64,000 nucleotides of DNA from a virus (taxonomy: Duplodnaviria; Caudoviricetes): IMG/VR virus record IMGVR_UViG_3300017764_000001; one strand, written 5' to 3'. Below are positions 1-15,130 of this stretch, in pieces (position 1 is the stretch's first letter; each line of letters begins with the position of its first letter). Both the position numbers and the translations under genes were made by a program. The notes beneath the pieces were generated by a model. That model did not search any database, had not been told where the DNA came from, and was given only the letters and a program-made list of their open reading frames with translations.

Positions 1-1
1 T

Positions 2-445: not shown

Positions 446-448
446 ATA
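442..448 (+). promoter_or_regulatory. T4-type late promoter (ATAAATA)
   Basis: ATAAATA about 20 nt upstream of the ATG at 470. Confidence 0.55.
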
Positions 449-469
449 AAAAGAAATGAGTTTTTTATT

Positions 470-1126
470 ATGAATGATGAAATATTACAAGTCACTCAAT
501 TTGAAAATCCCTTTCCTCATTTGATTGTAGATAATTTTTATAATGAGAAAGAATTAGAACTTATATGGGAAGAACTTAAATTTTATACAAAACCAGGTAA
601 ATTGCTTGATGTAAAAGATTATGGTGGTGTAGATGGATATACCAGTGCGAAAGCAATTATGTTGGACTCACTTTACAGGGATAATACTAAAAATAATGGT
701 GTTAACTGGAGAAGTTTATCTAATATTTTGACAGTCAATCGAAAATTATTTACGAGTGGTGTTTTAGATGTATTTGCCGATACACATGATTGTTGCTGTC
801 TGGCAAATAAATCAAATAGTGATACCACAAAAGTCAGATATTATCATAATGGTGATAAGTATGATCCACATACTGATAAAGGATTTCAGTTTTTAGGATT
901 TTCATATTTTTATAAAGAACCTAAAAAATTTGAAGGTGGACAGTTATATTTTCCAAAATATGATTATGAAGTTCCTTGTGATAACAATTCAATGATTATC
1001 TTCCCTGGATGGGTAGAACACGGAGTAAGAGAAATAAGTATTAAAGATTCTGATTACTTTGATGGTTGGGGGAGATATGCCATAACTTCATTCTTTACTT
1101 TTAAGGCAAATGAAATACATAATTGA
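470..1126 (+). CDS. 2OG-Fe(II) oxygenase (prolyl-4-hydroxylase-like)
   Basis: HxD motif (YDPHTD), distal His (WVEHGV), GGQL strand and terminal R-x-x-I-T pattern of the DSBH fold. The family is common in cyanophages. Confidence 0.88.
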   Translation: MNDEILQVTQFENPFPHLIVDNFYNEKELELIWEELKFYTKPGKLLDVKDYGGVDGYTSAKAIMLDSLYRDNTKNNGVNWRSLSNILTVNRKLFTSGVLDVFADTHDCCCLANKSNSDTTKVRYYHNGDKYDPHTDKGFQFLGFSYFYKEPKKFEGGQLYFPKYDYEVPCDNNSMIIFPGWVEHGVREISIKDSDYFDGWGRYAITSFFTFKANEIHN

Positions 1127-1151
1127 CAAAGTATCAAAATATAAGTAGAAT
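1123..1151 (+). promoter_or_regulatory. sigma70-type promoter
   Basis: TTGACA(1123-1128)-17 bp-TAGAAT(1146-1151). Confidence 0.75.
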
Positions 1152-1170
1152 ACCTTTGTTGGGGTTGATG

Positions 1171-1251
1171 AGACAGTTTAAGAACTGTCTACTAGATTTA
1201 AATACTGGTGCTTCATGCCCTATAATATGGAGGTAAACAAGGGACAATCCC
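1171..1251 (+). promoter_or_regulatory. Early-promoter cassette A (palindrome + -10 + RBS)
   Basis: Perfect inverted repeat AGACAGTT-taag-AACTGTCT (1171-1190), 30 bp gap, TATAAT (1221-1226), CAAGGGA before the ATG at 1252. Confidence 0.8.
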
Positions 1252-1392
1252 ATGCTCTGTGAAGTCAAACTTTATGTTGCGGGTCGTACTTTCTATGAGA
1301 CTGTTCGTGCCGCAAACTATGATGAAGCCCGTGAAGTGGCACTGGCAAGAAATCCTAATGCAACTGTCGTGAGTGTAAATGCAAAGTTCTGA
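1252..1392 (+). CDS. small hypothetical early protein (46 aa, MLCEVKLYVAGRTFYETVRAANYDEAREVALARNPNATVVSVNAKF)
   Basis: Read by hand. Directly behind cassette A and its RBS. The stop overlaps the next start (TGATG). Confidence 0.8.
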   Translation: MLCEVKLYVAGRTFYETVRAANYDEAREVALARNPNATVVSVNAKF

Positions 1393-1544
1393 TGTCTAAG
1401 TTTTTTGATGAAAAAATGCAAGTCTGCATTGAACTTGATGGGGAAACTTATTGGAATCTTGTAAAGATGGGTGCAGAAATTAGAACACCCATCAACCAAT
1501 ACATTGAAAATTTATTGCAAAGTCATGTAATGGATTATGAATAA
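1392..1544 (+). CDS. 50-aa protein with a ribbon-helix-helix-like pattern
   Basis: Read by hand: MSKFFDEKMQVCIELDGETYWNLVKMGAEIRTPINQYIENLLQSHVMDYE. Coupled to both neighbours. Confidence 0.65.
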   Translation: MSKFFDEKMQVCIELDGETYWNLVKMGAEIRTPINQYIENLLQSHVMDYE

Positions 1545-1782
1545 GTTTCTAAAACCACATATTCCACAGCCAGGATTACTTGAACCAAACCCAGGTAATC
1601 CTTTAGGTTATGTAACAAATGATGGAATGTGGGCAGCAGTTCCATGTGGCAAAAAGTTTAGCATTATACATAATGGAAGTGTGATTCATCAATCACGCAC
1701 TTACGATTCGGCACTGAACTTTATTAAAAAGGGGGTTAAAAATGAGGGATCAAAACGGAATCGAAGACAACGAACCGGGTGA
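1537..1782 (+). CDS. hypothetical cyanophage protein
   Basis: 81-aa ORF in an overlapping gene chain. Confidence 0.7.
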   Translation: MNKFLKPHIPQPGLLEPNPGNPLGYVTNDGMWAAVPCGKKFSIIHNGSVIHQSRTYDSALNFIKKGVKNEGSKRNRRQRTG

Positions 1783-1960
1783 TGTTAAATGGAATCGAGG
1801 ACTAGACATCTTCATTGAATCTGTTCACAAACCTGATCCCGCATTACGTCAGTGCGCTCATAATCAAAGATGTTATCATGAACTCATGTGGGTTCGTGAG
1901 AACGTGTTAAACTATCTCAAAACACTTAGAAAGCACGATGAATATTCCACGTATCCATGA
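1742..1960 (+). CDS. hypothetical cyanophage protein
   Basis: 72-aa ORF in the chain. The KWNRGLDIFIESVHKPD segment resembles small conserved cyanomyovirus proteins. Confidence 0.7.
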   Translation: MRDQNGIEDNEPGDVKWNRGLDIFIESVHKPDPALRQCAHNQRCYHELMWVRENVLNYLKTLRKHDEYSTYP

Positions 1961-2162
1961 CGGAGATAAAGTAACCTATATTGGTTGCTGTAGGGAGCAA
2001 ATTAACTGGGGAAATAGTGATAATCCCGACAATGTATTAGAGAGAGGAAAAGAATACACAGTAGAGAAAACTGAGGTTCATACTGCACATACAAAATTAA
2101 TGATCAAAGGTTATAATGGCAAATTCAATTCTATTTGTTTTTTAAAAGGAGAGGAACAATGA
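1938..2162 (+). CDS. hypothetical protein
   Basis: 74-aa ORF. The stop overlaps the next ATG (ATGA). Confidence 0.7.
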   Translation: MNIPRIHDGDKVTYIGCCREQINWGNSDNPDNVLERGKEYTVEKTEVHTAHTKLMIKGYNGKFNSICFLKGEEQ

Positions 2163-2377
2163 GTCAATTTGATCCAGCAGAAATAGTATTACAGAGCACT
2201 GCCAAGTTATTTGAATACGAAAAACTATCACGGCAGATTGAAGAATGTAATGATATGGAAATGTTGAGAGACATGGCACGTTGTTGGATCAAATTGTACA
2301 TGAAACAACAAGAAACCATGAGAACCATTGGACTTGATCAACAACCACTTCCCAAAAGAAAGGATGACGAGGGTTAA
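2159..2377 (+). CDS. nblA: NblA-like phycobilisome degradation protein (putative)
   Basis: Likely start at 2159 (RBS GAGG, ATGA overlap). The pattern LQSTAKLFEYEKLSRQIEECNDMEMLRDMARCWIKLYMKQQET fits the two-helix NblA hairpin of marine picocyanobacteria. Confidence 0.6.
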   Translation: MSQFDPAEIVLQSTAKLFEYEKLSRQIEECNDMEMLRDMARCWIKLYMKQQETMRTIGLDQQPLPKRKDDEG

Positions 2378-2379
2378 TT

Positions 2380-2556
2380 ATGTACGAAGAATTAGACTGC
2401 TTTGAAAGAGCACTACAACATTTTGGTACGAGAGTAGAGATTGTCACCGCCATGGAAATGGCAAATAAAATTGCTACTGAAGATGCCTACCAAATGATTA
2501 AGGATGAACTTAAAGAATTGAAAAAATGCCGTAAAGAATTTAAGAAAGATGCCTGA
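2380..2556 (+). CDS. hypothetical protein (58 aa, MYEELDCFERALQHFGTRVEIVTAMEMANK...)
   Basis: Read by hand. Fills the gap between flanking genes and is missing from the ORF track. Confidence 0.75.
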   Translation: MYEELDCFERALQHFGTRVEIVTAMEMANKIATEDAYQMIKDELKELKKCRKEFKKDA

Positions 2557-2710
2557 TGATTCTCTTAAAATTCATGAAAATGATGACGGTTCATTTAGTA
2601 TGGAATGGGATCGAGAGGACCAGAAATGGAACTGGTTAAATGACTTGACAAGTGCCGAGATTGAGACTATGCTACAGGAAGCAATCAGAAACTATGGAGG
2701 AACTCAATGA
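2549..2710 (+). CDS. hypothetical protein (53 aa, MPDDSLKIHENDDGSFSMEWDREDQKWNWLN...)
   Basis: Read by hand. Overlaps both neighbours in a coupled fashion. Confidence 0.75.
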   Translation: MPDDSLKIHENDDGSFSMEWDREDQKWNWLNDLTSAEIETMLQEAIRNYGGTQ

Positions 2711-3042
2711 CAAAACCAGATCTTGAATATAAAAACTATTCACTTGAAAAATTGAGTGAATGGATTAGAGATTCTCTTCATTCTGAAGCGACTCCATTGG
2801 AAATCTATGAGGCAATCATCACAACTCTCAAACAGGAAGTTAGTTATCATGATGTCTGTAAAAGACAGGCAAAAGATATCATAAATTTGATGCAAGGATA
2901 TCAAAAAAATGATTCAATCGATTTAGGACTTGATGAATATCCATATGGAGAAAGTTTCATATCTGCATTAGATGATACCATTTCACCTAAATCACTAGAT
3001 AATAATGATGGTGATGTGATCAATTTTCCAATGCGATACTAA
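2707..3042 (+). CDS. hypothetical protein
   Basis: 111-aa ORF with an ATGA overlap. Confidence 0.7.
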   Translation: MTKPDLEYKNYSLEKLSEWIRDSLHSEATPLEIYEAIITTLKQEVSYHDVCKRQAKDIINLMQGYQKNDSIDLGLDEYPYGESFISALDDTISPKSLDNNDGDVINFPMRY

Positions 3043-3071
3043 TAAATACAATCACAAAAGGACAAACTATA

Positions 3072-3299
3072 ATGGAAAGCGTCGAAAAGCACATTGAAGT
3101 TGATAAAAAGATCCTTGAAGATCCAACAACTTCACCACAACAACGTCGTCACATCGAAGAAGAACTTCATGAACTTGAGGTCTATGTAGAGAATCACAAG
3201 AAAGAAATTGCAGATGGTGATCATCATGATCCTACCGCACTTGAACTATTTTGTGAGGTTGAACCAGATGCAGATGAGTGCCGTATCTATGACGATTGA
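3072..3299 (+). CDS. cp12: CP12 (Calvin cycle inhibitor)
   Basis: C-terminal LELFCEVEPDADECRIYDD with two Cys 8 residues apart is the CP12 signature. The N-terminal HIEEELHELE is typical of the cyanophage form. Confidence 0.9.
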   Translation: MESVEKHIEVDKKILEDPTTSPQQRRHIEEELHELEVYVENHKKEIADGDHHDPTALELFCEVEPDADECRIYDD

Positions 3300-3584
3300 A
3301 TGAAACTTCCTTCATCATTCCCTCATGAACCTCCTGAAGGTTATCATTACGAGGTTGAACAATTCAGACGTAATGTGGTTTCTATCTGGTTACGTCACCC
3401 CGATCATTTCAATTATACTGATGAGCCTGTACGCACTATATGGGGTTTCTTTAATACAAAGAAAGGACTTTACTATTCCCCCGTCAATCATAAGAAAGTT
3501 GGAAAAGAAGTTGATATCACTGACACCAGAAATTACACCTCAATGCAAATACAATACAAGGGACTGGAAAGTTTCTTTGTGTGA
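3300..3584 (+). CDS. conserved hypothetical cyanophage protein
   Basis: 94-aa ORF (FPHEPPEGYHYEVEQFRRNVVSIWL...). Confidence 0.75.
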   Translation: MKLPSSFPHEPPEGYHYEVEQFRRNVVSIWLRHPDHFNYTDEPVRTIWGFFNTKKGLYYSPVNHKKVGKEVDITDTRNYTSMQIQYKGLESFFV

Positions 3585-3661
3585 CAGTTATTGAACTGTC
3601 TACCACCTCTTGACGAGGTGGTTTTTTCATGGCATAATATATTCATATTCATCAGACATCT
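3582..3661 (+). promoter_or_regulatory. Early-promoter cassette B with terminator-like hairpin
   Basis: TGACAGTT-attg-AACTGTCT (3582-3601). Hairpin ACCACCTC-ttgac-GAGGTGGT followed by a T-run. TTGACG(3610)-17-CATAAT(3633). Confidence 0.75.
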
Positions 3662-4852
3662 GTGACCGTCACTCTTCGTCCGCATCAACAACGTGGCATC
3701 AATCGTATGGAAGAGTATGCCAAAGGTCAACTGATTTTCCCCACCGGAGCAGGCAAAACTCTCACGGCAATCATGGATGCCAAGAGAGTATTTGAGACTG
3801 CAACATCACACAAAACCATTGTGATTGTTGCTCCTCGTATTCTCCTTGCTGAGCAACTTTGTAGTGAGTTTCTGGAAGTTATTCAACGCAATGATGTGCA
3901 TGTGATGCACGTTCACAGTGGTGAGACTTCTTTCTTCGGCACCACTAAAGTCAAGCAGATTCAGATGCACGACTCCATCTGCAAAACTGCCGGTGAGCAT
4001 CAACTTATCTTCACCACTTACAACTCTCTGGGTCGTATTGTGGATGCAGAAGTTGAGGTAGATACTATCTACTTTGATGAGGCACATAACAGTGTCAAAC
4101 GTAACTTTTTCCCTGCCACCGAGCACTACAGTCAAGAGGCAAATCGTTGCTATTTCTTCACTGCCACTCGTAAGACTTCGGTCACTATTGCCAAACCAGG
4201 CATGAATGATCGTGCCGTCTATGGTGATGTAATCTGCCGAGTTTCTGCACCTGAACTTGTGGAGGGTGGTTATATTCTTCCTCCCAAGGTTAAGGTGATT
4301 GAAATGGATAAGGTTGATCGTAAATCTATCACCCCTCACCTTGAGAGCAACAACATTCTCACCACGATTGATGAGATCAGCATCAAGAAAGTTCTGGTCT
4401 GTTCTAACACTACCAAACAACTGACCACTATCTTCCAGACTGATTTTGCCTATCAGTTGCAGAAACGTGGTTATTCTTATTTGTATATCACTGCCAAGAC
4501 TGGTGCTGTTATTGATGGTAAGAAAGTATCCCGTGAGAAGTTCTTTGAAACTTTGAACACCTGGGGTAAAGATTCCAACAAAAAGTTTGTTGTTCTTCAC
4601 CGTTCGATTCTGTCTGAAGGTATCAATGTCAGTCAACTGGAAGCAGTCATCTTCATGCGTAACATGGATGTGATTGAAATGACTCAAACTGTGGGTCGTG
4701 TGCTTCGTAAAGGTGGCAATGATAAGACCTACGGATTCTGTGTCGTCCCTGTTTATTCTAAGGTTGGTATCTCTACTCAACGTGGATTGCAGACGGTGAT
4801 TGATACCGTCTTTGAGAAGGGTGAGATGCTTGATAGTGTGGTGCGTCGTTGA
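3662..4852 (+). CDS. SF2 (DEAH-box) helicase-like ATPase
   Basis: Walker A PTGAGKT, DEAH, FTAT (motif III), LSEGINV (V), QTVGRVLR (VI). GTG start. Confidence 0.9.
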   Translation: MTVTLRPHQQRGINRMEEYAKGQLIFPTGAGKTLTAIMDAKRVFETATSHKTIVIVAPRILLAEQLCSEFLEVIQRNDVHVMHVHSGETSFFGTTKVKQIQMHDSICKTAGEHQLIFTTYNSLGRIVDAEVEVDTIYFDEAHNSVKRNFFPATEHYSQEANRCYFFTATRKTSVTIAKPGMNDRAVYGDVICRVSAPELVEGGYILPPKVKVIEMDKVDRKSITPHLESNNILTTIDEISIKKVLVCSNTTKQLTTIFQTDFAYQLQKRGYSYLYITAKTGAVIDGKKVSREKFFETLNTWGKDSNKKFVVLHRSILSEGINVSQLEAVIFMRNMDVIEMTQTVGRVLRKGGNDKTYGFCVVPVYSKVGISTQRGLQTVIDTVFEKGEMLDSVVRR

Positions 4853-4854
4853 TG

Positions 4855-4933
4855 CACCAGTCTATGAACTGTCCACCAGTCGTTGCCAGGGCACCAGGAT
4901 GCCCTATAATACAAAGGTAGTCAAGGGAGAGCA
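4855..4933 (+). promoter_or_regulatory. Early-promoter cassette C
   Basis: CACCAGTC-tatg-AACTGTCC (4855-4874). TTGCCA-GGGCACCAGGATGCCC-TATAAT(4905). CAAGGGA RBS. Confidence 0.8.
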
Positions 4934-5101
4934 ATGATCACCAACAAACGGCAAATGCTCAAAGTGATGTCACGATGCACCGATGCAGACACACTCACCC
5001 GTGAACAAAAATTTGAGGTCTTCTGTAGAGTTTGTGACAACATGCTCAAGGAAGGTAGAATCACTAGAGTAAATCACAGACGCTGGACTGAAATCTGGTA
5101 A
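4934..5101 (+). CDS. hypothetical protein (55 aa, MITNKRQMLKVMSRCTDADTLTREQKFEVFCRVCDNMLKEGRIT...)
   Basis: Read by hand. First gene after cassette C. Confidence 0.75.
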   Translation: MITNKRQMLKVMSRCTDADTLTREQKFEVFCRVCDNMLKEGRITRVNHRRWTEIW

Positions 5102-5142
5102 ATCACTAAAGTTCATTCTTCAACCTTTTTTTCTTCATCATC

Positions 5143-5544
5143 ATGGCAACCCGAGCACGAATTGGTCTTCAAGTTGGAAATGCAATCATTTCTGTTTATC
5201 ATCACTGGGATGGTTATCCTCAGTGGTTGGGTCGCATCCTGAGCACACATTACATCACAAAGAGTCAAGTTATTGACCTGATTGACGGTGGTGATATGTC
5301 TTCCTGCTGGACTAATTGTGGTTGGCAGAATGAAACCCGTCCCGAAACTGGTCCAATGTATTATTCTGAGCGTGGAGAAGATTGTCCTCCTCGTTTGGAT
5401 GAATCTATCACTGAGTTTATTAACAACGGTGAAGAGTTTGGTTATATCTTCAAGGATGGTGAATGGTTCTGTTATGATACTAAGACCTGGAGTGATACTT
5501 TCGCACAGGTTATAGATATTCCAGAGGGAGCCCTGGTAGCATGA
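5143..5544 (+). CDS. conserved hypothetical phage protein (MATRARIG...YHHWDGYP family)
   Basis: 133-aa ORF with a conserved-looking YxHWDGYP motif. Confidence 0.8.
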   Translation: MATRARIGLQVGNAIISVYHHWDGYPQWLGRILSTHYITKSQVIDLIDGGDMSSCWTNCGWQNETRPETGPMYYSERGEDCPPRLDESITEFINNGEEFGYIFKDGEWFCYDTKTWSDTFAQVIDIPEGALVA

Positions 5545-5723
5545 TCGATTTAGAAAAACTTTCTCATGAAGAGAAAGAAGCACTGGCAGAAGATTGTGAA
5601 GACTTTCTTCTGCACAGAAACATACCATTAAGGTCACATTCATACGATAACATCATTCTTCATGCAATGAGAGAAGGTTATCGCATCGAAGGATTCGACC
5701 GACCCATCCGTAGGACAGCATAA
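5541..5723 (+). CDS. hypothetical protein
   Basis: 60-aa ORF with an ATGA overlap. Confidence 0.7.
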   Translation: MIDLEKLSHEEKEALAEDCEDFLLHRNIPLRSHSYDNIILHAMREGYRIEGFDRPIRRTA

Positions 5724-5793
5724 CAACTGTCCACAACCTCTTCACAGGGCACCAGGATGCCCTATAATACATTTGTAATCAAGGGACGACCCC
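5713..5793 (+). promoter_or_regulatory. Early-promoter cassette D
   Basis: GGACAGCA-taac-AACTGTCC (5713-5732). TTCACA-GGGCACCAGGATGCCC-TATAAT(5763). CAAGGGA RBS. Confidence 0.8.
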
Positions 5794-6162
5794 ATGACAA
5801 CCTCCTTCGCAGACTACGTTGCTCAGCAGGATGCACGGAACGACATTCAGTTGAACGTTCGCAAGTGGACTTTGATGTTGTGTGATGCTCTGGTTGACAA
5901 TTTCAAGCAGTCTCACCCTAACTCTGATCCTTACACATTCTCCGTTGAGAGTGGTCGTAAGTATCACAAGATTATGATGGAGACTGAATCTCAGTCTAGG
6001 AGTGTTCATGCCTTCGTTGATAAGAAGACTGGAGAAGTTTACAAGCCTGCTTCATTCAAGGCACCCGCAAAGATTGTCCGTTTCAATCTCTGTTTGATTA
6101 AAGACCGTGAGTGGTTGCTGGAGAACTGTGACTGGGCTGGGAGCTACCTTTATGTGCGATAA
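5794..6162 (+). CDS. conserved hypothetical phage protein
   Basis: 122-aa ORF with GRKYHKI...VHAFVDKKTGEVYKPASFKAPAK, a motif familiar from T4-like phage early regions. Confidence 0.8.
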   Translation: MTTSFADYVAQQDARNDIQLNVRKWTLMLCDALVDNFKQSHPNSDPYTFSVESGRKYHKIMMETESQSRSVHAFVDKKTGEVYKPASFKAPAKIVRFNLCLIKDREWLLENCDWAGSYLYVR

Positions 6163-6171
6163 TATGATATA

Positions 6172-6360
6172 ATGAACACATTCAATTCGGAGGTTACAAT
6201 GAACGATGAACGACATTATCACACCGAAAGTGAACGTCGTCAACTTGACGGTGTTGTCACTGATTCTGATAAAAATGGATGGAACGTATCCAAACTGAAT
6301 CGAATGAAGTCCAGAGCAAACAATCTACCTGATGATTCTCTGATTATTGATGACGACTAA
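6172..6360 (+). CDS. hypothetical protein
   Basis: 62-aa ORF. The start may be the second Met, which follows a GGAGG RBS. Confidence 0.6.
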   Translation: MNTFNSEVTMNDERHYHTESERRQLDGVVTDSDKNGWNVSKLNRMKSRANNLPDDSLIIDDD

Positions 6361-6411
6361 AGAAAAGTTCCTGTTCACTGCATCATTCATCTGGTTTCTT
6401 CACTGGGGCAC

Positions 6412-6888
6412 ATGTCTAGCATCTACCATTCTGGATACGGTTATTCTAAGAAACTCTGTGAGGATGTTACCTCTTGGTTTCTGAACAAGTATTATCCACG
6501 TCATAAGATTGATGTGGAGATTGTTCACCGGGGATTGAAACGTGAGGGTGTCTATGGTTATTGTGACGTGATCGGTCGATCTCATCGGCCACGTCACTTC
6601 CTGATTGAACTTCAGACCGAAATGTCCAAGGAGTTGTATACAAAAATCCTTTTTCATGAATTGAAGCACCTGGCACAGTGGGTAGACGGTTCTCTGCGGT
6701 TTCGGCATGGAAAAATGTGTTATTGTCAAGAACCGGTCGAAAAATACGACTATGTGGATCAACCACATGAAATTGAAGCACGGGAGTGGGAAGAAATCCT
6801 ATATGATCTGCATCTAAATGACAAACAAGGTATGCCGGTGAAACAAGTGGCACAGCAGTCGTTCCCAAACCGTCTGATGGCTATATAA
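6412..6888 (+). CDS. zincin-like metallopeptidase domain protein
   Basis: HExxH (LFHELKHLAQ) plus downstream PHEIEA providing the third ligand Glu. Confidence 0.75.
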   Translation: MSSIYHSGYGYSKKLCEDVTSWFLNKYYPRHKIDVEIVHRGLKREGVYGYCDVIGRSHRPRHFLIELQTEMSKELYTKILFHELKHLAQWVDGSLRFRHGKMCYCQEPVEKYDYVDQPHEIEAREWEEILYDLHLNDKQGMPVKQVAQQSFPNRLMAI

Positions 6889-6916
6889 TAACCATGTAAA
6901 CAAGGGAGGACCACTG
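6833..6916 (+). promoter_or_regulatory. Early-promoter cassette E (overlaps the 3' end of the upstream CDS)
   Basis: TGCCGGTG-aaac-AAGTGGCA (6833-6852), 31 bp gap, TATAAT (6884), CAAGGGAGG RBS. Confidence 0.7.
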
Positions 6917-7072
6917 ATGACCCCAGAAGTTGAGAAGCACCTGGCAGATCCTTACAATCGGATTCGTTATGCTTATGAGTTCCTGGACAGTGAGATCGGT
7001 GATTCTGCCAAGTGTATGGATCGAATCTATTATTGGTTATCTCAGGATATTGATTGTGAGGTACACTACTAA
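6917..7072 (+). CDS. hypothetical protein (51 aa, MTPEVEKHLADPYNRIRYAYEFLDSEIG...)
   Basis: Read by hand. First gene after cassette E. Confidence 0.7.
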   Translation: MTPEVEKHLADPYNRIRYAYEFLDSEIGDSAKCMDRIYYWLSQDIDCEVHY

Positions 7073-7251
7073 TGAACAATGTAGACAGTATCAACAAACA
7101 AATTCTTGAACTGAACCATCGAAAACAAAAACTTGAGATTGAGATTGATGGTATCGAATCTGCAATCAAGTTTCTAAGACAACAGAAAGAACTGTTGGAA
7201 GGTGCAAAGGGCACCACAAAAGACTTTTACGACGATCTTCTTTCTGACTGA
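7072..7251 (+). CDS. coiled-coil hypothetical protein (59 aa, MNNVDSINKQILELNHRKQKLEIEIDGIESAIKFLRQQKELLE...)
   Basis: Read by hand. TAATG coupling and a heptad pattern. Confidence 0.7.
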   Translation: MNNVDSINKQILELNHRKQKLEIEIDGIESAIKFLRQQKELLEGAKGTTKDFYDDLLSD

Positions 7252-7252
7252 C

Positions 7253-8167
7253 ATGCTGACTCACATTGAACACATCGAAGATTCTATTCTGACTGGTGAT
7301 CTTCGACCCCTGGATGTTTTCACCGAATGGCATCATCTTTCGGTCAAAATGGACGGTGCTCCTGCGATTGTCTGGGGCACACATCCTGAGACTGATAAGT
7401 TTTTTGTCGGCACCAAGAGTGTATTCAACAAGAAAAAGATCAAAATCAATTATACTCATGATGACATCAACAACAATCATGAGGGTAATGTAGCTCTGAT
7501 TCTTCATGCCTGTCTGGCAAATCTGCCAAGGACAAATGGTATTATTCAGGGTGATTTTCTTGGATTCGGTGGTGATGATACCTATTGTCCGAATACTGTG
7601 ACTTATGTGTTCGATGATATTATTCAGGAGACGATTGTCGTCGCACCACACACCTGGCACGAACCCGATCAGTGGTATGATGGTGATGGTAATTGTTTGC
7701 GTGAGTGTATGGCACTGCCACTGAATCATGGTGATGTAGAGAGCACGGATGAGTGTCTGTTTGTGAGACCCAAGACCTGGAAGATTGTGGATGACGACTT
7801 CAGTTCTGATGTCGCATTTGCCCGTCAGATGGCACAAATGGTGAGGTTTGTTGATGATAAGCAGGCGGCAAAGTTGAAGCAGGTTCTTAACTCTTTCATT
7901 CGTGAGGGTATTGAACTGGATGAAGAATTGATTGCCTATAGTGCAGATTGTGATGTGAATTTGATTCGGTTGTGGAAACTGGTGCGATCAATGAAGCATG
8001 AGTATTTGTTTGCCTGTCGTAATAATGGACCGAAGGCATATTTGAACAATCGTAGGTGTCACGGTGAGGGTTATGTCGTCTTCCATGATTATGGCACGTT
8101 CAAGTTTGTCAAACGTGAGAATTTTAGTCGATTGAACTTCACAATGCAAAAGGCATGGGACAGTTGA
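7253..8167 (+). CDS. DUF6267-like protein with a KxDG ligase/nucleotidyltransferase motif
   Basis: Likely start MLTHIEHIED at 7253. SVKMDGAPAIVWG and FFVGTKSVFNKK match a T4-like phage family with ligase motif I. Confidence 0.7.
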   Translation: MLTHIEHIEDSILTGDLRPLDVFTEWHHLSVKMDGAPAIVWGTHPETDKFFVGTKSVFNKKKIKINYTHDDINNNHEGNVALILHACLANLPRTNGIIQGDFLGFGGDDTYCPNTVTYVFDDIIQETIVVAPHTWHEPDQWYDGDGNCLRECMALPLNHGDVESTDECLFVRPKTWKIVDDDFSSDVAFARQMAQMVRFVDDKQAAKLKQVLNSFIREGIELDEELIAYSADCDVNLIRLWKLVRSMKHEYLFACRNNGPKAYLNNRRCHGEGYVVFHDYGTFKFVKRENFSRLNFTMQKAWDS

Positions 8168-8238
8168 GGTAGTGGCACAGGACAGGGTGTCCGTGCTCTG
8201 TCCTGCCCTATAATACAGAGGTAATCAAGGGACACACC
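8158..8238 (+). promoter_or_regulatory. Early-promoter cassette F
   Basis: GGACAGTT-gagg-TAGTGGCA (8158-8177). Hairpin CAGGACAG...CTGTCCTG. TATAAT(8209). CAAGGGA RBS. Confidence 0.8.
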
Positions 8239-8478
8239 ATGACCGACTTCATCTGTGCCTACTTTGGTTCTGACTGGACTATCACTGCTCGTGGGTTCTC
8301 CAGTGCCCGCCAGGCGGAGAAGCACGGACTCTACATGATGCCCACAGCCGGTGTCTTCGGGTTTGCGGTGATTCATGAGTCTGAGAACGGATGGGAGGTC
8401 TGTGATGACCGCAGCATCCTGTCACCTAACAATAAGGTGACTCAGACTGATCTTAACACGTTTGACGTTTCAGTCTAA
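8239..8478 (+). CDS. hypothetical protein
   Basis: 79-aa ORF after cassette F. Confidence 0.75.
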   Translation: MTDFICAYFGSDWTITARGFSSARQAEKHGLYMMPTAGVFGFAVIHESENGWEVCDDRSILSPNNKVTQTDLNTFDVSV

Positions 8479-8479
8479 A

Positions 8480-8562
8480 AACCAGTTGAGAAGGTGGCAC
8501 ACACCACCTTCACAGGGCACTCGGATGCCCTATAATAAGAACATCAACAAGGGACACACCCC
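8480..8562 (+). promoter_or_regulatory. Early-promoter cassette G
   Basis: AACCAGTT-gaga-AGGTGGCA (8480-8499). TTCACA-GGGCACTCGGATGCCC-TATAAT(8531). CAAGGGA RBS. Confidence 0.8.
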
Positions 8563-8829
8563 ATGCAACTGACCAACTCTGCCACCATCGTTGATTTCTT
8601 CCCTGAGGCATTTATTGCCGAGGCAGATGAGAAGAAAGGAATGAAAGTTGTGATCAAACGTTTCCACAAGAGAGTCACATTTCGTGCCAATGGTATGAAG
8701 TCCTATAGCACGGTGACTATGATTGATGCAAAAAACGAGTGGATGTCACGTATTGCCAAGGGTGCGGAAGTGACCAACTATAATACCGAAAAGATGCCTT
8801 CTTCTGAGTATATGCCCCTGTACTGCTGA
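8563..8829 (+). CDS. hypothetical protein
   Basis: 88-aa ORF after cassette G. Confidence 0.78.
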   Translation: MQLTNSATIVDFFPEAFIAEADEKKGMKVVIKRFHKRVTFRANGMKSYSTVTMIDAKNEWMSRIAKGAEVTNYNTEKMPSSEYMPLYC

Positions 8830-8879
8830 TGTTCTACGTTCTGCCCATCGTTCTTTTCATCTATTCTCTTCTCTCATGA
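8829..8879 (+). CDS. putative 16-aa hydrophobic micropeptide (MFYVLPIVLFIYSLLS)
   Basis: The ATG overlaps the upstream TGA, and its own TGA overlaps the downstream ATG. It fills the gap exactly. Confidence 0.45.
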   Translation: MFYVLPIVLFIYSLLS

Positions 8880-9154
8880 ACTACACTCTTCAACAACTGA
8901 AAGATCGAGTCAACACTCTCATCGAACAACAGGGGGAAACTGCATACTGTGCGGCATGGATTTATACCAAGGAAGATTGTTCTATGCGGGACAATGAGGG
9001 ATTGGATGTGTATCCGTGCGAAGAACATCCTGAGTTGGTTGAACGTATCTTCAACGATATTGGCAACATTGATTACATCTACACTACCATTCAGGATTGT
9101 GTAGATGAAGTTACAGAAGAACAATATATGGCACTTCAGCAGGAACTGGTCTGA
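8876..9154 (+). CDS. hypothetical protein
   Basis: 92-aa acidic ORF in a coupled chain. Confidence 0.75.
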   Translation: MNYTLQQLKDRVNTLIEQQGETAYCAAWIYTKEDCSMRDNEGLDVYPCEEHPELVERIFNDIGNIDYIYTTIQDCVDEVTEEQYMALQQELV

Positions 9155-9396
9155 TGTTTATTGATACCGATCGTCAACTTCGCAAACTTTCTATTTTCAA
9201 ACCAATGAACTTTCGTATTGTTGAGATTGACTTTGACTTTGATGATGAAATGACCAATGATGATCAACAGGAGATTGTCGATGAAGTTATGGCGACGACC
9301 TGGAGTGCGATTGATGGTGATGACCTTGTAGAAGAGATTACATCTGCGACGGGTTGGTGTATTAACTCCATTGATTATTGTTATGTCCTGTCCTAA
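9154..9396 (+). CDS. hypothetical protein
   Basis: 80-aa acidic ORF (DDLVEEITSATGWCINSIDY). Start uncertain. Confidence 0.7.
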   Translation: MFIDTDRQLRKLSIFKPMNFRIVEIDFDFDDEMTNDDQQEIVDEVMATTWSAIDGDDLVEEITSATGWCINSIDYCYVLS

Positions 9397-9447
9397 AAAA
9401 ACCTTGTCTGTGTTATAATCATAGATAAGGAAAATGCACTGAAAACT

Positions 9448-9678
9448 ATGACAGTCGATTGTTCAAGAACAGAAACTAATGTCTTTCTAAATGTTCAGGA
9501 ACTGGGTGTTATCCTAAGTGCCCTTCAACTTTTAGATCACAGTGATGAACATCTCATTGCCAGACAATATGGACCTGCTCCTGTCTTATACAATCGATTG
9601 GTGGAAATTTATGAAACACTGGACCGGTCACAAATTTATACTCATCATGAGTATCAACGACATGAACACAGTTATTGA
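9448..9678 (+). CDS. hypothetical protein
   Basis: 76-aa ORF preceded by an extended -10 (TGtTATAAT at 9411-9419). Confidence 0.65.
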   Translation: MTVDCSRTETNVFLNVQELGVILSALQLLDHSDEHLIARQYGPAPVLYNRLVEIYETLDRSQIYTHHEYQRHEHSY

Positions 9679-10043
9679 TGGAACAATTTGGATGGGATAC
9701 CAATGATGAGTTTCCAATCGAAAGAACGGAACATCCATCATCACCAGTTAAAAGAACTCTTTATCTTCATTCATTAAATGAACACTCTTGTATCAGTCAT
9801 GATGGTTACATTCAACTCGGTATCTTTGATCATTCTGTTGAGAGACACATGGAATTGAATCCGACACTACACTGGGTTGAAACTTATTGGTGTCCTGATG
9901 TCTTCAGTAAACGTTATAAACGTGCGACATTCCAAAAGACTGCCAGAGTTAATGAAGGTAGTCCAAAGACTGATAATCAGGGACAGGGTATTGATTATGA
10001 TAAGGTAAAACCTAAAGGATGCACTAAATTAGAGGACAAGTAA
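9675..10043 (+). CDS. hypothetical protein
   Basis: 122-aa ORF. Confidence 0.7.
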   Translation: MMEQFGWDTNDEFPIERTEHPSSPVKRTLYLHSLNEHSCISHDGYIQLGIFDHSVERHMELNPTLHWVETYWCPDVFSKRYKRATFQKTARVNEGSPKTDNQGQGIDYDKVKPKGCTKLEDK

Positions 10044-10044
10044 A

Positions 10045-10224
10045 ATGACACAAAAAACATACAAAATTGAAGAAGAAGGGACAAATGGTTGGGCACTCAT
10101 TGATCCTGAGTACCAGCATCTTACAAAGGAAAGATGCTCTGAACTCCTAGAACATCTTATTGAAAAAGGTGTCAATCCAAACTATCTTCGTGCCGTAAGA
10201 GATGACGTACAAACCTCAAGTTGA
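10045..10224 (+). CDS. hypothetical protein (59 aa, MTQKTYKIEEEGTNGWALIDPEYQHLTKERCSELLEHLIEKGVNPNYLRAVRD...)
   Basis: Read by hand. GAGG RBS. Fills the gap. Confidence 0.75.
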   Translation: MTQKTYKIEEEGTNGWALIDPEYQHLTKERCSELLEHLIEKGVNPNYLRAVRDDVQTSS

Positions 10225-10435
10225 TGATTATGTCAAGTGGAGAAATGTAGAGGGATGGGTTTACTTTGTAGACCATGAATATTTTACCATTGAGATAGGA
10301 GTTAAAAACAAGAGCGAAGAATCTTATAAGGATTCACCTCTTCATCGGAAAGTTCATTGTCTGATTGTCTGTCACAACTATTATTGGGATGATGTAGAGT
10401 ATGTCAAACACCGAAGAAAAGAAAATGCCCAATGA
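10202..10435 (+). CDS. hypothetical protein
   Basis: 77-aa ORF (YKPQVDDYVKWRNVEGWVYF...). Confidence 0.72.
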   Translation: MTYKPQVDDYVKWRNVEGWVYFVDHEYFTIEIGVKNKSEESYKDSPLHRKVHCLIVCHNYYWDDVEYVKHRRKENAQ

Positions 10436-11126
10436 TGTTATTGTCAAGGGTAAGGTCAAGAGTGTGATTCAGGGTATTGATGATGATCAGGTTCTGATTC
10501 ATTATCATGATACTGTGACTGCCGGTAATGGTAAGAAGAAAGATCATCCGAAAGGTAAGGGTGAAATCAATGCAAAGATATCATCCCTTATCTTTGAACA
10601 ATTAGAACGTGCCACAATTAAAACTCATTTCATACAATCGGCAGGTCCTGGTATTATGAGATGTAAGAAGGTGGATATTATTCCGATTGAGGTTGTTGTT
10701 CGTAATGTCGCTGATGGTTCGATTGTAAGAGACACGACTATTCCAAAGGATACCGTATTCAATCCACCACTGGTTGAGTTCTATCTCAAGGATGATGATA
10801 AGAATGATCCTTTACTTACGGAGGATAGATTAACACTTATGGGGTATACTAATCTAAGAAGAATCAAACAGTATGCAAAGGAGACTAATGCCGTGGTATC
10901 TGATTTGTTTAAAAGAATTGGTATTATATTGATTGATTTTAAACTTGAGTTTGGTACGACTGTCAATGGAGAGATTGTTGTTGCCGATGAGATTAGTCCT
11001 GATGGATGTAGGTTGAGAAATAAGGAGACAAATCAAAGTATGGACAAAGATTTATTCCGTAAGGGTACAGGTGATATTATTGGTGCCTACACTGAAATTA
11101 TGAACAAATTGATTGAAATATGCTGA
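10425..11126 (+). CDS. purC: SAICAR synthase (phosphoribosylaminoimidazole-succinocarboxamide synthase)
   Basis: Motifs TAGNGKK, IPIEVVVRNVADGS, LIDFKLEFG, VADEISPDGCRL, DKDLFR. The start is 10425 or 10401. Confidence 0.93.
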   Translation: MPNDVIVKGKVKSVIQGIDDDQVLIHYHDTVTAGNGKKKDHPKGKGEINAKISSLIFEQLERATIKTHFIQSAGPGIMRCKKVDIIPIEVVVRNVADGSIVRDTTIPKDTVFNPPLVEFYLKDDDKNDPLLTEDRLTLMGYTNLRRIKQYAKETNAVVSDLFKRIGIILIDFKLEFGTTVNGEIVVADEISPDGCRLRNKETNQSMDKDLFRKGTGDIIGAYTEIMNKLIEIC

Positions 11127-11302
11127 AATATGATTAAAAAACAATTAAAAAGGTATTTTTAAATATAAAAGTGTTGTTTGTATGCTATTGAGAATCATTA
11201 GCAATAAGGTGTTAGTAACTCCGTGGATACTGTGTGAATACTGTGTAGAAACTCCTGAGTAACTTCACAGAAACCTCTCATCCTTATGTGAGTTTAGTCC
11301 GC

Positions 11303-11331
11303 ACGTTATCACACTCGAAGGTTTTTGTCAA
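11303..11331 (-). promoter_or_regulatory. leftward sigma70-type promoter
   Basis: Reverse complement reads TTGACA-aaaaccttcgagtgtga(17)-TAACGT. Confidence 0.55.
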
Positions 11332-11380
11332 CAGGGACGGCAGAAAAACTCTGAGATCCACACATTTCTCGTCGAGATTG

Positions 11381-11388
11381 TATAAATA
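11381..11388 (+). promoter_or_regulatory. T4-type late promoter motif
   Basis: Exact TATAAATA between repeat boxes 1 and 2. Confidence 0.5.
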
Positions 11389-11417
11389 CATCTTATGAAT
11401 CTCGTCGAGACATACAC

Positions 11418-11446
11418 TTGACAACTCGACGAGATCATAGTATCAT
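11418..11446 (+). promoter_or_regulatory. rightward sigma70-type promoter with a repeat box in its spacer
   Basis: TTGACA(11418)-actcgacgagatcatag(17)-TATCAT(11441). Confidence 0.75.
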
Positions 11447-11476
11447 AATCACAGTTCATCAATCTCGACGAGAACC

Positions 11477-11680
11477 ATGTACGACGATTACGATCTCGAC
11501 TATACATTCAATAATGATCATGCATCATCATATGATCTCGACGAGATGTGCGAAGGACACGTATCATATAACATGATACAAGATAGCACATCATATAATG
11601 ACGAGATGACCGCATATGATGATGACGAACATCGTGACGAGCAAGACTATCAAACGCTTGCATATATGCACTACGCATGA
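11477..11680 (+). CDS. highly acidic Tyr/Asp-rich small protein
   Basis: 67-aa ORF MYDDYDLDY...YDLDEM, directly downstream of the promoter. Confidence 0.7.
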   Translation: MYDDYDLDYTFNNDHASSYDLDEMCEGHVSYNMIQDSTSYNDEMTAYDDDEHRDEQDYQTLAYMHYA

Positions 11681-11709
11681 TAGAATAGTCCGAGAATCAC
11701 CTAACCACA

Positions 11710-11862
11710 ATGATTGCACAGAAACGCACAATCCGTGTTATTCTAGACATCGAATGTTACGATGATCTTGATATCGAGGATCAGGATTGGCGTGAGATTC
11801 TGCAGCTCGAAGGTGATGAAGACGTTCATGCTACCATCAAAGATCTGGCAGATATCTTCTAG
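11710..11862 (+). CDS. hypothetical protein (50 aa, MIAQKRTIRVILDIECYDDLDIEDQDWREILQLEGDEDVHATIKDLADIF)
   Basis: Read by hand. Confidence 0.7.
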   Translation: MIAQKRTIRVILDIECYDDLDIEDQDWREILQLEGDEDVHATIKDLADIF

Positions 11863-11890
11863 TTTGTGCCAGTTCGTAGATTGGTTTTTT

Positions 11891-11919
11891 ATTCTCAATA
11901 GTGAGTCCTTATTGAGAAT
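11891..11919. repeat. inverted repeat ATTCTCAATA-N9-TATTGAGAAT (copy 1)
   Basis: Perfect 10-bp arms with a 9-bp spacer, intergenic. Confidence 0.85.
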
Positions 11920-11934
11920 AGAAGTCTTTAAAAA

Positions 11935-12016
11935 AACCAGTTGGAGAACTGGCACAGAACCCCTTGTGGATTCGTCCGTGAGGGGTTATGTTGTATCTGT
12001 CGTTAGGAAATTCTCC
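11935..12016 (+). promoter_or_regulatory. Early-promoter cassette I
   Basis: AACCAGTT-ggag-AACTGGCA (11935-11954). Hairpin AACCCCT...GGA-TTCG-TCC...AGGGGTT. -10-like TATGTT (11987). AGGA RBS. Confidence 0.7.
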
Positions 12017-12151
12017 ATGTTTGATGAACTCTGGTCTGAGATTGCTGATGCTCCCGGTGAGATCTTCGATGTCATCGAATACAAGGAAGAATGGGAGAAG
12101 GAAGAGAAATTCGATGTTGAGAAGTACATCAACGGAGACACTGATTACTGA
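12017..12151 (+). CDS. small acidic hypothetical protein (44 aa, MFDELWSEIADAPGEIFDV...)
   Basis: True start is probably the ATG at 12017 after cassette I. The ORF-track extension to 11762 runs through the promoter. Confidence 0.72.
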   Translation: MFDELWSEIADAPGEIFDVIEYKEEWEKEEKFDVEKYINGDTDY

Positions 12152-12426
12152 TGTCCTTCATTTCAAACTTCATCAATCAAACTATGAACGAATCTGATCT
12201 TTTCACTCTCAAAGAAAACTATGCCAACATGATTATCGATGACATGGATATTGATACGTTGGCACAATTTGCCTACGATTCAATCATGGACAATCTGAAA
12301 GATTATGAAGAGACAGATTTGGAGGCAGAAATCACCGATCTTTATGGTGAAGAAACTTACAATGATTTGGCAGACGTTGATACCATCAACGTTTCGTATG
12401 GTGATACGCTGAGACCCGCAAGTTAG
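12151..12426 (+). CDS. acidic hypothetical protein
   Basis: 91-aa ORF with TGATG coupling. Confidence 0.72.
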   Translation: MSFISNFINQTMNESDLFTLKENYANMIIDDMDIDTLAQFAYDSIMDNLKDYEETDLEAEITDLYGEETYNDLADVDTINVSYGDTLRPAS

Positions 12427-12428
12427 TC

Positions 12429-12457
12429 ATTCTCAATATACATTTATTATTGAGAAT
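12429..12457. repeat. inverted repeat ATTCTCAATA-N9-TATTGAGAAT (copy 2)
   Basis: Same arms and the same 9-bp spacer length as copy 1. Confidence 0.85.
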
Positions 12458-12470
12458 CGCAGCTGCCGGT

Positions 12471-12532
12471 GGACAGTTGAACAACCTACACACAAAATGG
12501 GCACAGACCCCAAAATCGTGTATTGTGGATAC
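12471..12532 (+). promoter_or_regulatory. Early-promoter cassette J (degenerate)
   Basis: GGACAGTT-gaac-AACCTACA (12471-12490), 30 bp gap, -10-like TATTGT (12521). Confidence 0.6.
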
Positions 12533-12712
12533 ATGAACAAAACACAACTCTTTTCTGACTCAAATCTCTCCGAACTTCAGGGTTTCATGTTTGACACAAT
12601 GGCATCATCAGAAATGGCAGTCGATTGGTTCTGCGATCGTTTCAATGTTAATGCAGATGATGATATCATTGATTTCGTCCTTGATGCACACTTTGCGTTC
12701 TTCGGAGAGTAA
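12533..12712 (+). CDS. hypothetical protein (59 aa)
   Basis: Start MNKTQLFSD after cassette J. Confidence 0.7.
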   Translation: MNKTQLFSDSNLSELQGFMFDTMASSEMAVDWFCDRFNVNADDDIIDFVLDAHFAFFGE

Positions 12713-12747
12713 CACTAACTCCTTTCGTTCTTCATTCACACTTTCTC

Positions 12748-12879
12748 ATGCGTATCTTCCTTGCTTCGATTGTCATCATCCTGGGTGCCAATCTTCTCAT
12801 CGATCTGTTGGATTCCGACCTGGTGGATGTAATGCAGGAGCGTCGGGAAACTATAGAGAAACAAATGGATCGGATGTGA
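12748..12879 (+). CDS. small protein with an N-terminal hydrophobic segment (43 aa, MRIFLASIVIILGANLLIDLLDSDLVDVMQERRETIEKQMDRM)
   Basis: Read by hand. Confidence 0.6.
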   Translation: MRIFLASIVIILGANLLIDLLDSDLVDVMQERRETIEKQMDRM

Positions 12880-12932
12880 CAGTCGGCAAGGTGTCCACTT
12901 TTTTGGCACAGCACCCCGTTTCCGTGTATCTT
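12877..12932 (+). promoter_or_regulatory. Early-promoter cassette K (degenerate)
   Basis: TGACAGTC-ggca-AGGTGTCC (12877-12896), 30 bp gap, -10-like TATCTT (12927). Confidence 0.6.
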
Positions 12933-12989
12933 AGAGAAGTGGAGGGGAGCACACCCCACCACGACCCCAGTCCTTTCACTTCAATTTCA

Positions 12990-13313
12990 ATGCGTAAGAT
13001 CGAAAAGCAAATGAACGACGCAGTTGCAAACAATGAGAATTGGACATCTGCAAACACGACTGTTACTTTCGATTCCGAAACTAATGAGTCTACCGTGTAT
13101 CTCCACGGTAATAAAATTGCAGAGGTTGGTGATGACTTCCTTCGTGTTTTTGACGGTGGATGGCAAACAAACACAACAAAGTCCCGTCTCAATGCACTGA
13201 TCGAACGTTTTTGTGATGCGTTCACTGACAGCGTTTATCAGCACAAATTTGAGTGGTTCATCACTGATGACAAGAACATTTACAAGTTCGTTAACGGTTA
13301 CACGTTCTCCTGA
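12990..13313 (+). CDS. conserved hypothetical cyanophage protein (107 aa, MRKIEKQMNDAV...)
   Basis: Likely start at 12990. The upstream in-frame extension crosses another ORF and a promoter. Confidence 0.75.
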   Translation: MRKIEKQMNDAVANNENWTSANTTVTFDSETNESTVYLHGNKIAEVGDDFLRVFDGGWQTNTTKSRLNALIERFCDAFTDSVYQHKFEWFITDDKNIYKFVNGYTFS

Positions 13314-13340
13314 GGGGTTCATTCCCCTCCTGTTCTTTTC
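13312..13340 (+). terminator. putative intrinsic terminator
   Basis: GAGGGG-ttcatt-CCCCTC followed by a pyrimidine/T-rich tract. Confidence 0.5.
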
Positions 13341-13352
13341 TCACTGATTAAC

Positions 13353-13523
13353 ATGTTTCGCATCGCATCTTCGTTAACAACCCGTCGCAAACTTTGGGTC
13401 TCCGATGATAACGTGGCACTGCCTGCTTATCTACATGCCGGGGCAAATTCCAAATACAAAGGAAGCAACCCCGGTAAGTATTGGTGCAACTCAGAGGCAC
13501 CGAACATTTCCTTCTCTATCTGA
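13353..13523 (+). CDS. hypothetical protein (56 aa, MFRIASSLTTRRKLWVSDDNVALPAYLHAG...)
   Basis: Read by hand. Confidence 0.6.
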   Translation: MFRIASSLTTRRKLWVSDDNVALPAYLHAGANSKYKGSNPGKYWCNSEAPNISFSI

Positions 13524-13529
13524 TACATT

Positions 13530-13667
13530 ATGAAAATCGTTCGGCGCACTGACTTCGGAAAGTTTCACACCATTTGTGTTCACACAGACAAAAAATGGAT
13601 CAAAGTGATTGATGACGGCATCATAAAGATTGTTCGCAATCCTTACACAGTGCCATGCGTTCGTTAA
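13530..13667 (+). CDS. hypothetical protein (45 aa, MKIVRRTDFGKFHTICVHTDKKWIKVIDDG...)
   Basis: Read by hand. Confidence 0.55.
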   Translation: MKIVRRTDFGKFHTICVHTDKKWIKVIDDGIIKIVRNPYTVPCVR

Positions 13668-13804
13668 CAGCAGTTCGGGGGTATTATGCCCCCTTATTGC
13701 CGCGGTGCGTGGCTAAAAACGCATCACTTCCCTAAGCTATAAACGACCCAAATCGACCTTTCAATTTCCCTCTCTTAAAAAAATTCTGAGCATATATAAA
13801 ATCA

Positions 13805-13996: not shown

Positions 13997-14014
13997 CTAT
14001 ATACCTGGTATGAT
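13986..14014 (+). promoter_or_regulatory. sigma70-type (middle) promoter
   Basis: TTGACA(13986)-17 bp-TATGAT(14009). Confidence 0.8.
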
Positions 14015-14036
14015 ACTGAAGTAGTTTTATTCTATT

Positions 14037-15104: not shown

Positions 15105-15130
15105 TACATAGTGTAGATATGTAAATTACC

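Follow-up and report, generated by a model that had tools for sequence, protein, structure and literature searches.

What does a 20-bp palindrome do when it stands, ten times over, at a nearly fixed distance upstream of the −10 hexamer of an early phage promoter? The question is raised by IMG/VR virus record IMGVR_UViG_3300017764_000001, whose analysed stretch of 64,000 nucleotides (hereafter the window) represents the early, hyperplastic region of a T4-like cyanomyovirus (Kyanoviridae-like), with a series of small open reading frames (ORFs) on the + strand in its first 13–16 kb. A large part of the picocyanobacteria in the ocean falls to T4-like cyanophages, which to our knowledge do not carry alt, modA/B, motA and asiA, the T4 genes that time early and middle transcription. 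The palindrome is here called the box, and the box together with the promoter behind it is called a cassette. What sequence comparison adds here is the picture of the box as a predicted dimer-type site that is distinct from the terminator hairpin of the cassette, is held 31 ± 1 bp from the −10 hexamer and is unenriched in the family of the putative hosts. It is rather probable that the cassettes combine a terminator/promoter with a dimer site for a phage-supplied regulator of the early gene class, with a secondary role as junctions.

The cassettes share one order of parts, in which the stop codon of the previous gene is followed by the box, a GC-rich (guanine-plus-cytosine-rich) hairpin carrying the −35 element, the −10 hexamer, a leader with a Shine-Dalgarno sequence and the start codon. 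The box consensus covers 20–22 bp and reads (G/A)(A/C)CAGTT-N4-AA(C/G)TG(T/G)C, followed by CAC or ACA, with a half-site spacing of CAG-N8-CTG. The ten cassettes of the window, with one predicted terminator, are as follows (MFE, minimum free energy).

1171–1254, + strand: cassette 1; box 1171–1190, a perfect 8-bp dyad; −10 TATAAT at 1221; CAAGGGA leader; ATG at 1252.
3582–3664, + strand: cassette 2, upstream of the helicase gene; box 3582–3601, overlapping the TGA of the upstream ORF; −10 CATAAT at 3633; GTG at 3662.
3602–3627, + strand: predicted intrinsic terminator of cassette 2; hairpin and T6, with TTGACG in the loop; −12.9 kcal/mol.
4855–4936, + strand: cassette 3; box 4855–4874; −35 TTGCCA; spacer hairpin GGGCA-N6-TGCCC; −10 TATAAT at 4905; ATG at 4934.
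5713–5796, + strand: cassette 4; box 5713–5732; −35 TTCACA; spacer hairpin; −10 TATAAT at 5763; ATG at 5794.
6833–6919, + strand: cassette 5; box 6833–6852 with imperfect arms; −35 TTCCCA; −10 TATAAT at 6884; ATG at 6917.
8158–8241, + strand: cassette 6; box 8158–8177 without a hairpin (MFE 0); second hairpin at −17.7 kcal/mol; −10 TATAAT at 8209; ATG at 8239.
8480–8565, + strand: cassette 7, upstream of the Syn9 gp73 homologue; box 8480–8499; −35 TTCACA; −10 TATAAT at 8531; ATG at 8563.
11935–12019, + strand: cassette 8; box 11935–11954; 13-pair hairpin 11958–11987; −10 TATGTT at 11987; ATG at 12017.
12471–12538, + strand: cassette 9, of the Syn9-like subtype CCCC-N6-CGTGTATTGT; box 12471–12490; −10 TATTGT at 12521; ATG at 12536.
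12877–12990, + strand: cassette 10, of the Syn9-like subtype, upstream of a gene with a Kyano_Gp96 domain; box 12877–12896; −10 TATCTT at 12927.

A preliminary description of this DNA had named the ten box starts and the ten −10 hexamers, and all of them were found exactly in place in the window sequence, with box-to-−10 gaps of 30, 31, 30, 30, 31, 31, 31, 32, 30 and 30 bp; the CAAGGGA that it reported ahead of the ATG in six cassettes is likewise present. A 22-nt matrix from other phage contigs, from which the closest relative (L002) was left out, recovers exactly these ten boxes on the + strand of the window at 12 bits, against a mean of 0.45 and a maximum of 4 matches in block shuffles of the window, a recovery that is partly circular, since the window and Syn9 had seeded the matrix by which the training sites were first chosen. 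At the same threshold the + strand has no match beyond 13 kb, in agreement with the earlier remark that the motif was not noticed there. The loose core pattern of the preliminary description, used alone, is weakly above chance (9 matches vs 2.55 expected), and it is the full box with its fixed spacing that gives the signal. Its view that the −35 elements are mostly poor did not hold, as TTGCCA, TTCACA and TTGACG each match 5/6 positions; the cassette promoters, with 10–11 of 12 consensus positions matched, belong to the best-scoring sigma-70-like sites of the first 16 kb.

The box could serve as a folded strand or as a duplex, and the pairing of its arms bears on this. Seven symmetric pairs were scored in 86 aligned boxes, with the 3′ partners shuffled among sequences as the null. 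It was found that 72.1% of cells are Watson–Crick or GU pairs vs 72.3 ± 0.9% in the shuffles, with a covariation score of 0.123 vs 0.124; the central pair 6–15 is unpaired in 56 of the 86 boxes and pair 3–18 in 40. Because pairing equals the shuffle level, the column consensus fully accounts for the complementarity of the box. Its two halves obey one consensus, GMCA(G/S)TT, but sample that consensus independently of each other, which bears out the dimeric binding site proposed at the outset. Predicted folding of the box is weak (mean MFE −3.1 kcal/mol, with 46% of boxes at or above −2), and the box itself does not look like an intrinsic terminator, given its low predicted stability and the lack of a T-run behind it. 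On these features the box is predicted to be read as double-stranded DNA by a protein binding as a symmetric dimer, and not to work as a hairpin in RNA or DNA.

A second hairpin stands between the box and the −10 hexamer. The 32 nt behind the box fold at −8.3 kcal/mol vs −3.5 for shuffles, and 51% of them lie at or below −8 kcal/mol vs 8% in shuffles; the hairpin often has TTGAC in its loop or 5′ arm and a closing T-run just ahead of the −10 hexamer. A terminator scan of the window predicts terminators at 3602–3627 and 11958–11987, and the stem at 3602 shows a compensatory pair change relative to its L002 orthologue. Because these 32 nt fold well, often with TTGAC and a T-run, and because one stem pair is compensated, each cassette can be classed as a predicted composite terminator/promoter of the promoter-early stem-loop (PeSL) kind with an extra upstream box; its predicted structural, terminator-like element is the GC hairpin of variable sequence that separates the box from the −10. 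The preliminary description had the box and the −10 hexamer right and missed both the second hairpin or terminator and the PeSL-like composite nature of the cassette.

The cassette recurs in other phages. In Syn9 (NC_008296), the pattern MCAGT-N5-ARSTGKC has its exact + strand matches solely within 48.5–53 kb, and near-matches to the box pattern lie at 44.8, 46.3, 47.2 and 51.2 kb, as listed here together.

44777, 46293, 47207, 48561, 49081, 51003, 51214 and 52999 of Syn9: boxes, each followed by a −10 hexamer and a conserved leader.

The genes behind these boxes are gp61, gp63, gp68, gp73, gp75 (helicase), gp78, gp79 and gp90, and the Syn9 orthologue of the cassette 7 gene has its own box at about position 48560 of the record; a Syn9 control pattern with the spacer one base too long gave background noise only. 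A composite pattern (box, 30–33 nt, TANNNT) has 5 matches in P-SSM2, 6 in P-HM2 and 2 in S-PM2, with 0 control matches in each, and no strict match in T4 or in P-TIM40. In 80 metagenomic IMG/VR cyanophage loci, gathered through the helicase gene, 94 boxes lie on the + strand vs 29 on the − strand. The best −10-like hexamer falls 29–32 bp past the box in 76 of the 94 + strand sites, with a mode of 31, and the minus-strand boxes show no such −10 distance peak. The sequence that separates box from −10 is unrelated from cassette to cassette, and since it differs completely while the spacing stays, the box-to-−10 distance is under selection and not merely inherited.

Doron et al. 2016 reportedly described in their abstract a novel regulatory element for the early genes of Syn9, one that is both widely conserved and frequent in T4-like cyanophages. 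The element seen here fits that account: the box and −10 cassette stands at about eight Syn9 sites between 44.7 and 53 kb, before small genes and the helicase, and is abundant in metagenomic T4-like cyanophage contigs. The earlier guess that the two are the same has gained plausibility from the presence of the same box in Syn9, and the box cassette is probably the element in question. P-TIM40 is said in Doron et al. 2016 to behave alike, and in the present search it has 0 strict composite matches. In the literature searched beyond that paper, no description of the box motif was found.

If transcription starts 7 nt past the −10 hexamer, the box would span about −63 to −44 with its centre at about −53.5, would end about 8 bp ahead of the −35 element and would be set off from the −35 centre by about two helical turns. 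In the proposed mechanism, a dimer bound to the box would contact host RNA polymerase–SigA, probably through the alpha C-terminal domain; this contact would give the early gene class its distinct control, and the GC-rich hairpin that carries the −35 element would act as a terminator or insulator. In the preferred form, a phage-supplied factor, which either enters with the injected DNA or is produced very early, would boost these promoters and/or later shut them off. Such a factor is preferred because no matching regulon is seen in the host family, and we lean weakly towards a binding protein supplied by the phage. The earlier proposal of an activator that recruits host RNA polymerase agrees with a dimer site at a constrained −10 distance, but the good −35 and −10 hexamers leave activation as such unsupported. 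Since the core hexamers are good, basal recognition should not depend on the box. Its role may be to boost early firing or to serve in the later silencing of early promoters, and a shut-off operator would be equally compatible with the sequence as an activator site.

Two other explanations keep the cassette and change the role of the box. The box might be a stem-loop, that is, the terminator of the upstream gene or an RNA-stabilising hairpin (the “SL” of a classical PeSL) that acts as RNA or as a cruciform; it lies directly behind stop codons and directly upstream of a promoter, as PeSL stem-loops do (PMC4122927), the boxes at 1171, 3582, 5713 and 11935 have folding energies of −7.6 to −9.2 kcal/mol, and L049, L058, L077 and others form a lineage in which the terminator hairpin further downstream uses the right arm of the box as its 5′ arm. 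However, pairing at shuffle expectation without covariation, a central pair broken in 65% of sites, the poor folding of nearly half of the boxes, the missing T-run and the separate downstream hairpin, often with a T-run of its own, make this very improbable, the more so as it is sequence and not structure that is conserved across phages. Alternatively, the box might be mainly a recombination site or homology patch, with the cassettes as mobile junctions (PeSL-type shuffling, perhaps by a site-specific enzyme) and the spacing a result of common descent. Colinearity with the close relative L002 breaks exactly at boxes 1171 and 4855, and each indel has its start or its end right at a box (window 1170/1182 and 4853/4856): the L002 insertions are about 570 bp at 1171 and 842 bp at 4855, the latter ending exactly at the box and having its own cassette. 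Blocks shared with another contig (L003) are permuted and start at ATGs behind cassettes, and inverted arms around a short spacer are also the layout of a recombinase core site. What makes recombination an improbable main function is that the spacing is kept at 31 ± 1 bp despite unrelated intervening sequence, which points to selection on promoter phase, not descent; in addition, the L002 insertions do not have two flanking boxes, and the orientation of the box is always co-directional with the promoter. A recombination role is nevertheless compatible with the regulator-site explanation rather than exclusive of it. PeSL-type modular shuffling fits because the L002 breaks and the L003 permuted blocks fall at cassettes, and a secondary evolutionary role of the conserved cassettes, as junctions where related phages insert and permute gene modules, is likely.

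The remaining rival concerns the origin of the protein: the early promoters might be activated through the box by a hijacked dimeric transcription factor of marine Synechococcus/Prochlorococcus that is present before infection. This would require no phage protein at time zero, the identical box occurs in Prochlorococcus phages (P-HM2, P-SSM2) as well as Synechococcus phages (Syn9, S-PM2), and the CAG-N8-CTG geometry equals that of CRP/FNR/NtcA-type sites. The scan of host genomes speaks otherwise, with 3 matches of the composite pattern vs 14 control matches in 81 putative host-family genomes. These are the family of a 1.7-Mb, 33% GC genome and have sizes of 1.0–3.9 Mb; single loci of five of them have 33% GC (the 1.7-Mb genome) and 61–71% GC (four genomes of 2.4–2.9 Mb), and the family would fit Prochlorococcus/Synechococcus/Cyanobium. 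Because the composite motif is unenriched in these Cyanobiaceae-type genomes, a host regulon is not supported, and the option of a host regulator, which the preliminary description had kept beside an injected virion protein, loses ground and is unlikely. Perfect palindromes number about 85 in 401 cyanobacterial genomes vs about 45 for a reversed control, mostly in large genomes; they are rare in genomes smaller than 3 Mb (about 7 in about 100). Another cyanobacterial family, which includes a Thermostichus metagenome-assembled genome, has 18 composite matches vs 5 control matches and keeps box and −10 at two orthologous loci in 3–5 genomes, which favours a cyanobacterial factor, but its site upstream of an mrp-like gene is not kept in the five host-family genomes. 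A single Cyanobiaceae-type genome has a strikingly phage-like cassette among small orphan ORFs, which also counts for the host side.

Several points weigh against a phage-supplied dimeric regulator as set out above. The promoters already have good −35 and −10 hexamers, so an activator is not obviously needed, and a centre near −53.5 is not the classical class I position (−61.5 for CRP). No helix-turn-helix or other DNA-binding domain came up when about 40 early ORFs were scanned against Pfam and PHROG; the only ORF of a related kind encodes an AbrB/MazE-like protein (phrog_661), which with a net charge of about −12 is unlikely to bind DNA, and the AlphaFold2 model of the gp73-like protein, a beta-sheet and a helix, is of low confidence (predicted local distance difference test, pLDDT, 64) and too weak for a fold search. 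The site set was selected with a matrix and is partly circular. The host patterns were strict, so that a host factor with one or few degenerate sites would escape them, and cyanobacterial proteins with box specificity may exist, given the conserved Thermostichus-family sites. Marine RNA-library contigs of the phage cross the cassettes at 3582, 5713, 6833 and 8158 and are uninformative on starts and ends; the phage is found at at least 99% identity in libraries X1, X4 and X7, in contigs that are short and of low depth and for which DNA carry-over is possible. A more far-reaching version, in which the box would be the operator of a phage-supplied dimeric protein, injected or made within minutes, that defines the early class, with the box also a module crossover point and the whole a counterpart of the T4 Alt/MotA-type takeover, is put forward tentatively and is doubtful as it stands. 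If it were true, a host genomic-island gene that carries a phage-style cassette (L199, described below) would be switched on by infection.

Among known systems, the PeSL cassettes of T4-like phages (Arbiol 2010, PMC2839356; Comeau 2014, PMC4122927) are a close parallel; they have been described as composite terminator/promoter units (PMC4122927), and few PeSLs were found in cyanophage S-PM2 (Puxty 2015, PMC4503421). The present cassettes resemble them as repeated intergenic cassettes in a hyperplastic region, in the order of upstream element, sigma-70-type promoter (10–11/12), Shine-Dalgarno sequence and start codon, and in their association with indels and gene permutation between relatives; if the predicted hairpin does terminate transcription, they would also share the combination of a terminator with a promoter. 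They differ in having two upstream elements, the terminator-like hairpin overlapping the −35 element and spacer, and the box, further upstream, being kept in sequence without selected pairing, whereas the PeSL papers describe stem-loops only.

The position of the box recalls other regulators. The Ogr/Delta sites of phages P2/P4, TGT-N12-ACA, are centred near −55, and class I CRP sites are likewise dyads; the box shares with both a two-fold-symmetric site about 50–60 bp upstream of the start, in fixed phase, presumably acting via polymerase alpha. Ogr/Delta sites, however, belong to late promoters with a poor −35 element and known phage-encoded activators, whereas the present promoters are early and have a good −35 element. 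The NtcA site (GTA-N8-TAC at −41.5) has the same triplet-N8-triplet spacing; the box differs from it, as had been noted at the outset, both in its bases, CAG-N8-CTG, and in its position of −53.5 vs −41.5, and is no NtcA site. With the cis element delimited (two half-sites, a −10 phase and separation from the hairpin), the binding factor becomes approachable by DNA-affinity purification. The cassette also offers a compact early-promoter part for marine Synechococcus genetics, and the view, drawn from PeSLs, that regulatory cassettes serve as recombination junctions is extended to cyanophages.

Some observations concern proteins of the phage that were looked at as possible binders. The phrog_661 protein is a SpoVT/AbrB (MazE/PrlF)-like protein of 63 aa (window 13805–13996) with 70–95% identity in marine metagenomes; it sits at the same early-region boundary in Syn9 and is also present in P-SSM2, S-PM2 and P-TIM40, and it is likelier to bind protein or to mimic DNA than to bind DNA. 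The gp73-like protein, a basic protein of 88 aa (window 8563–8829), is encoded by the most conserved early gene, with 80–93% identity among the best-scoring 120 of 1359 relatives and about 80% nucleotide identity of the gene to Syn9 and S-CAM22. Three basic early proteins were considered as binders and set aside, as ESM-Atlas look-ups gave viral hypothetical clusters only.

Other observations concern box-like sites in cyanobacterial genomes. In the Thermostichus-containing family (L194:1498–1560, L196, L197; L195:2083–2099, L198), a −10-like hexamer lies 31–32 bp downstream of the box; one of the two boxes stands 28 bp past the gene of an AbrB-like (cyAbrB, PF14250) regulator, and the other between divergent mrp/NUBPL-like and DUF6464 genes. 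In a cyanobacterial genome of 2.5 Mb (L192:1535–1552), a perfect box lies right behind the kaiC stop codon, with TATCAT 32 bp downstream and then the gene of an AMP-binding enzyme; this was dropped as a host lead, as the genome belongs to the Thermostichus-containing family and is not a host. The phage-like cassette of the putative host family lies in a 2.9-Mb genome (L199:2498–2514, minus strand of the locus) and consists of a box with GTGGCACA, TTGCCG, 17 bp, TATAGT and a leader with AAAAGGGG. It is placed among small orphan ORFs with a local GC of 49%; the island showed no similarity to known phages or Pfam, and the cassette may mark a phage-derived or infection-responsive island gene. Rfam matched no family in the window or in the host loci examined.

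A different promoter-like motif of 36 bp, with a consensus of about GTTAGTnACCTCCAAAGTGCCCCTnTAGTGTAAG, is found in many of the related metagenomic contigs (L003–L081, e.g., L027:77–120 of the helicase-upstream set); the 80 loci contain 300 matches, every one on the + strand. This motif often takes the place of the box cassette upstream of the helicase gene or stands in tandem behind a box cassette, and it includes a box-like half-site, AAAGTGYCC, directly against the −10. The 36-nt matrix did not find it in the window or in the 30–70 kb stretch of Syn9, and its 15-nt core, with one mismatch allowed, has no credible match in the whole of Syn9, P-TIM40, S-PM2, P-SSM2 and P-HM2.

On the minus strand of the window, the matches of the box matrix are palindromic mirror images, two weak ones within structural genes (32301, 40583) and one orphan, for which no −10-like hexamer was found at the expected distance.

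11865–11886, − strand: orphan inverted box of 22 bits, within a small ORF or at its end and 70 bp upstream of cassette 8.

The ATG of cassette 9 begins only 9 nt past the −10 hexamer, so that the predicted mRNA would be leaderless or nearly so. The identifiable early genes of the window are those for a 2OG-Fe(II) oxygenase, CP12, the helicase, DUF6267, the gp73-like protein, purC and Kyano_Gp96; downstream of the early region come the baseplate genes gp25 and gp6 and then giant structural genes. At the nucleotide level the window resembles known phages only in patches, and the phages concerned are all T4-like Synechococcus myoviruses, S-CAM22 and Syn9 among them. The GC content is 40–43% in the early region (1–16000) vs 29–36% in the structural module (16001–64000). 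For purC (SAICAR synthetase, window 10401–11126), the best genomic relatives are from Bacillota, at 40–47% identity, and not from cyanobacteria.

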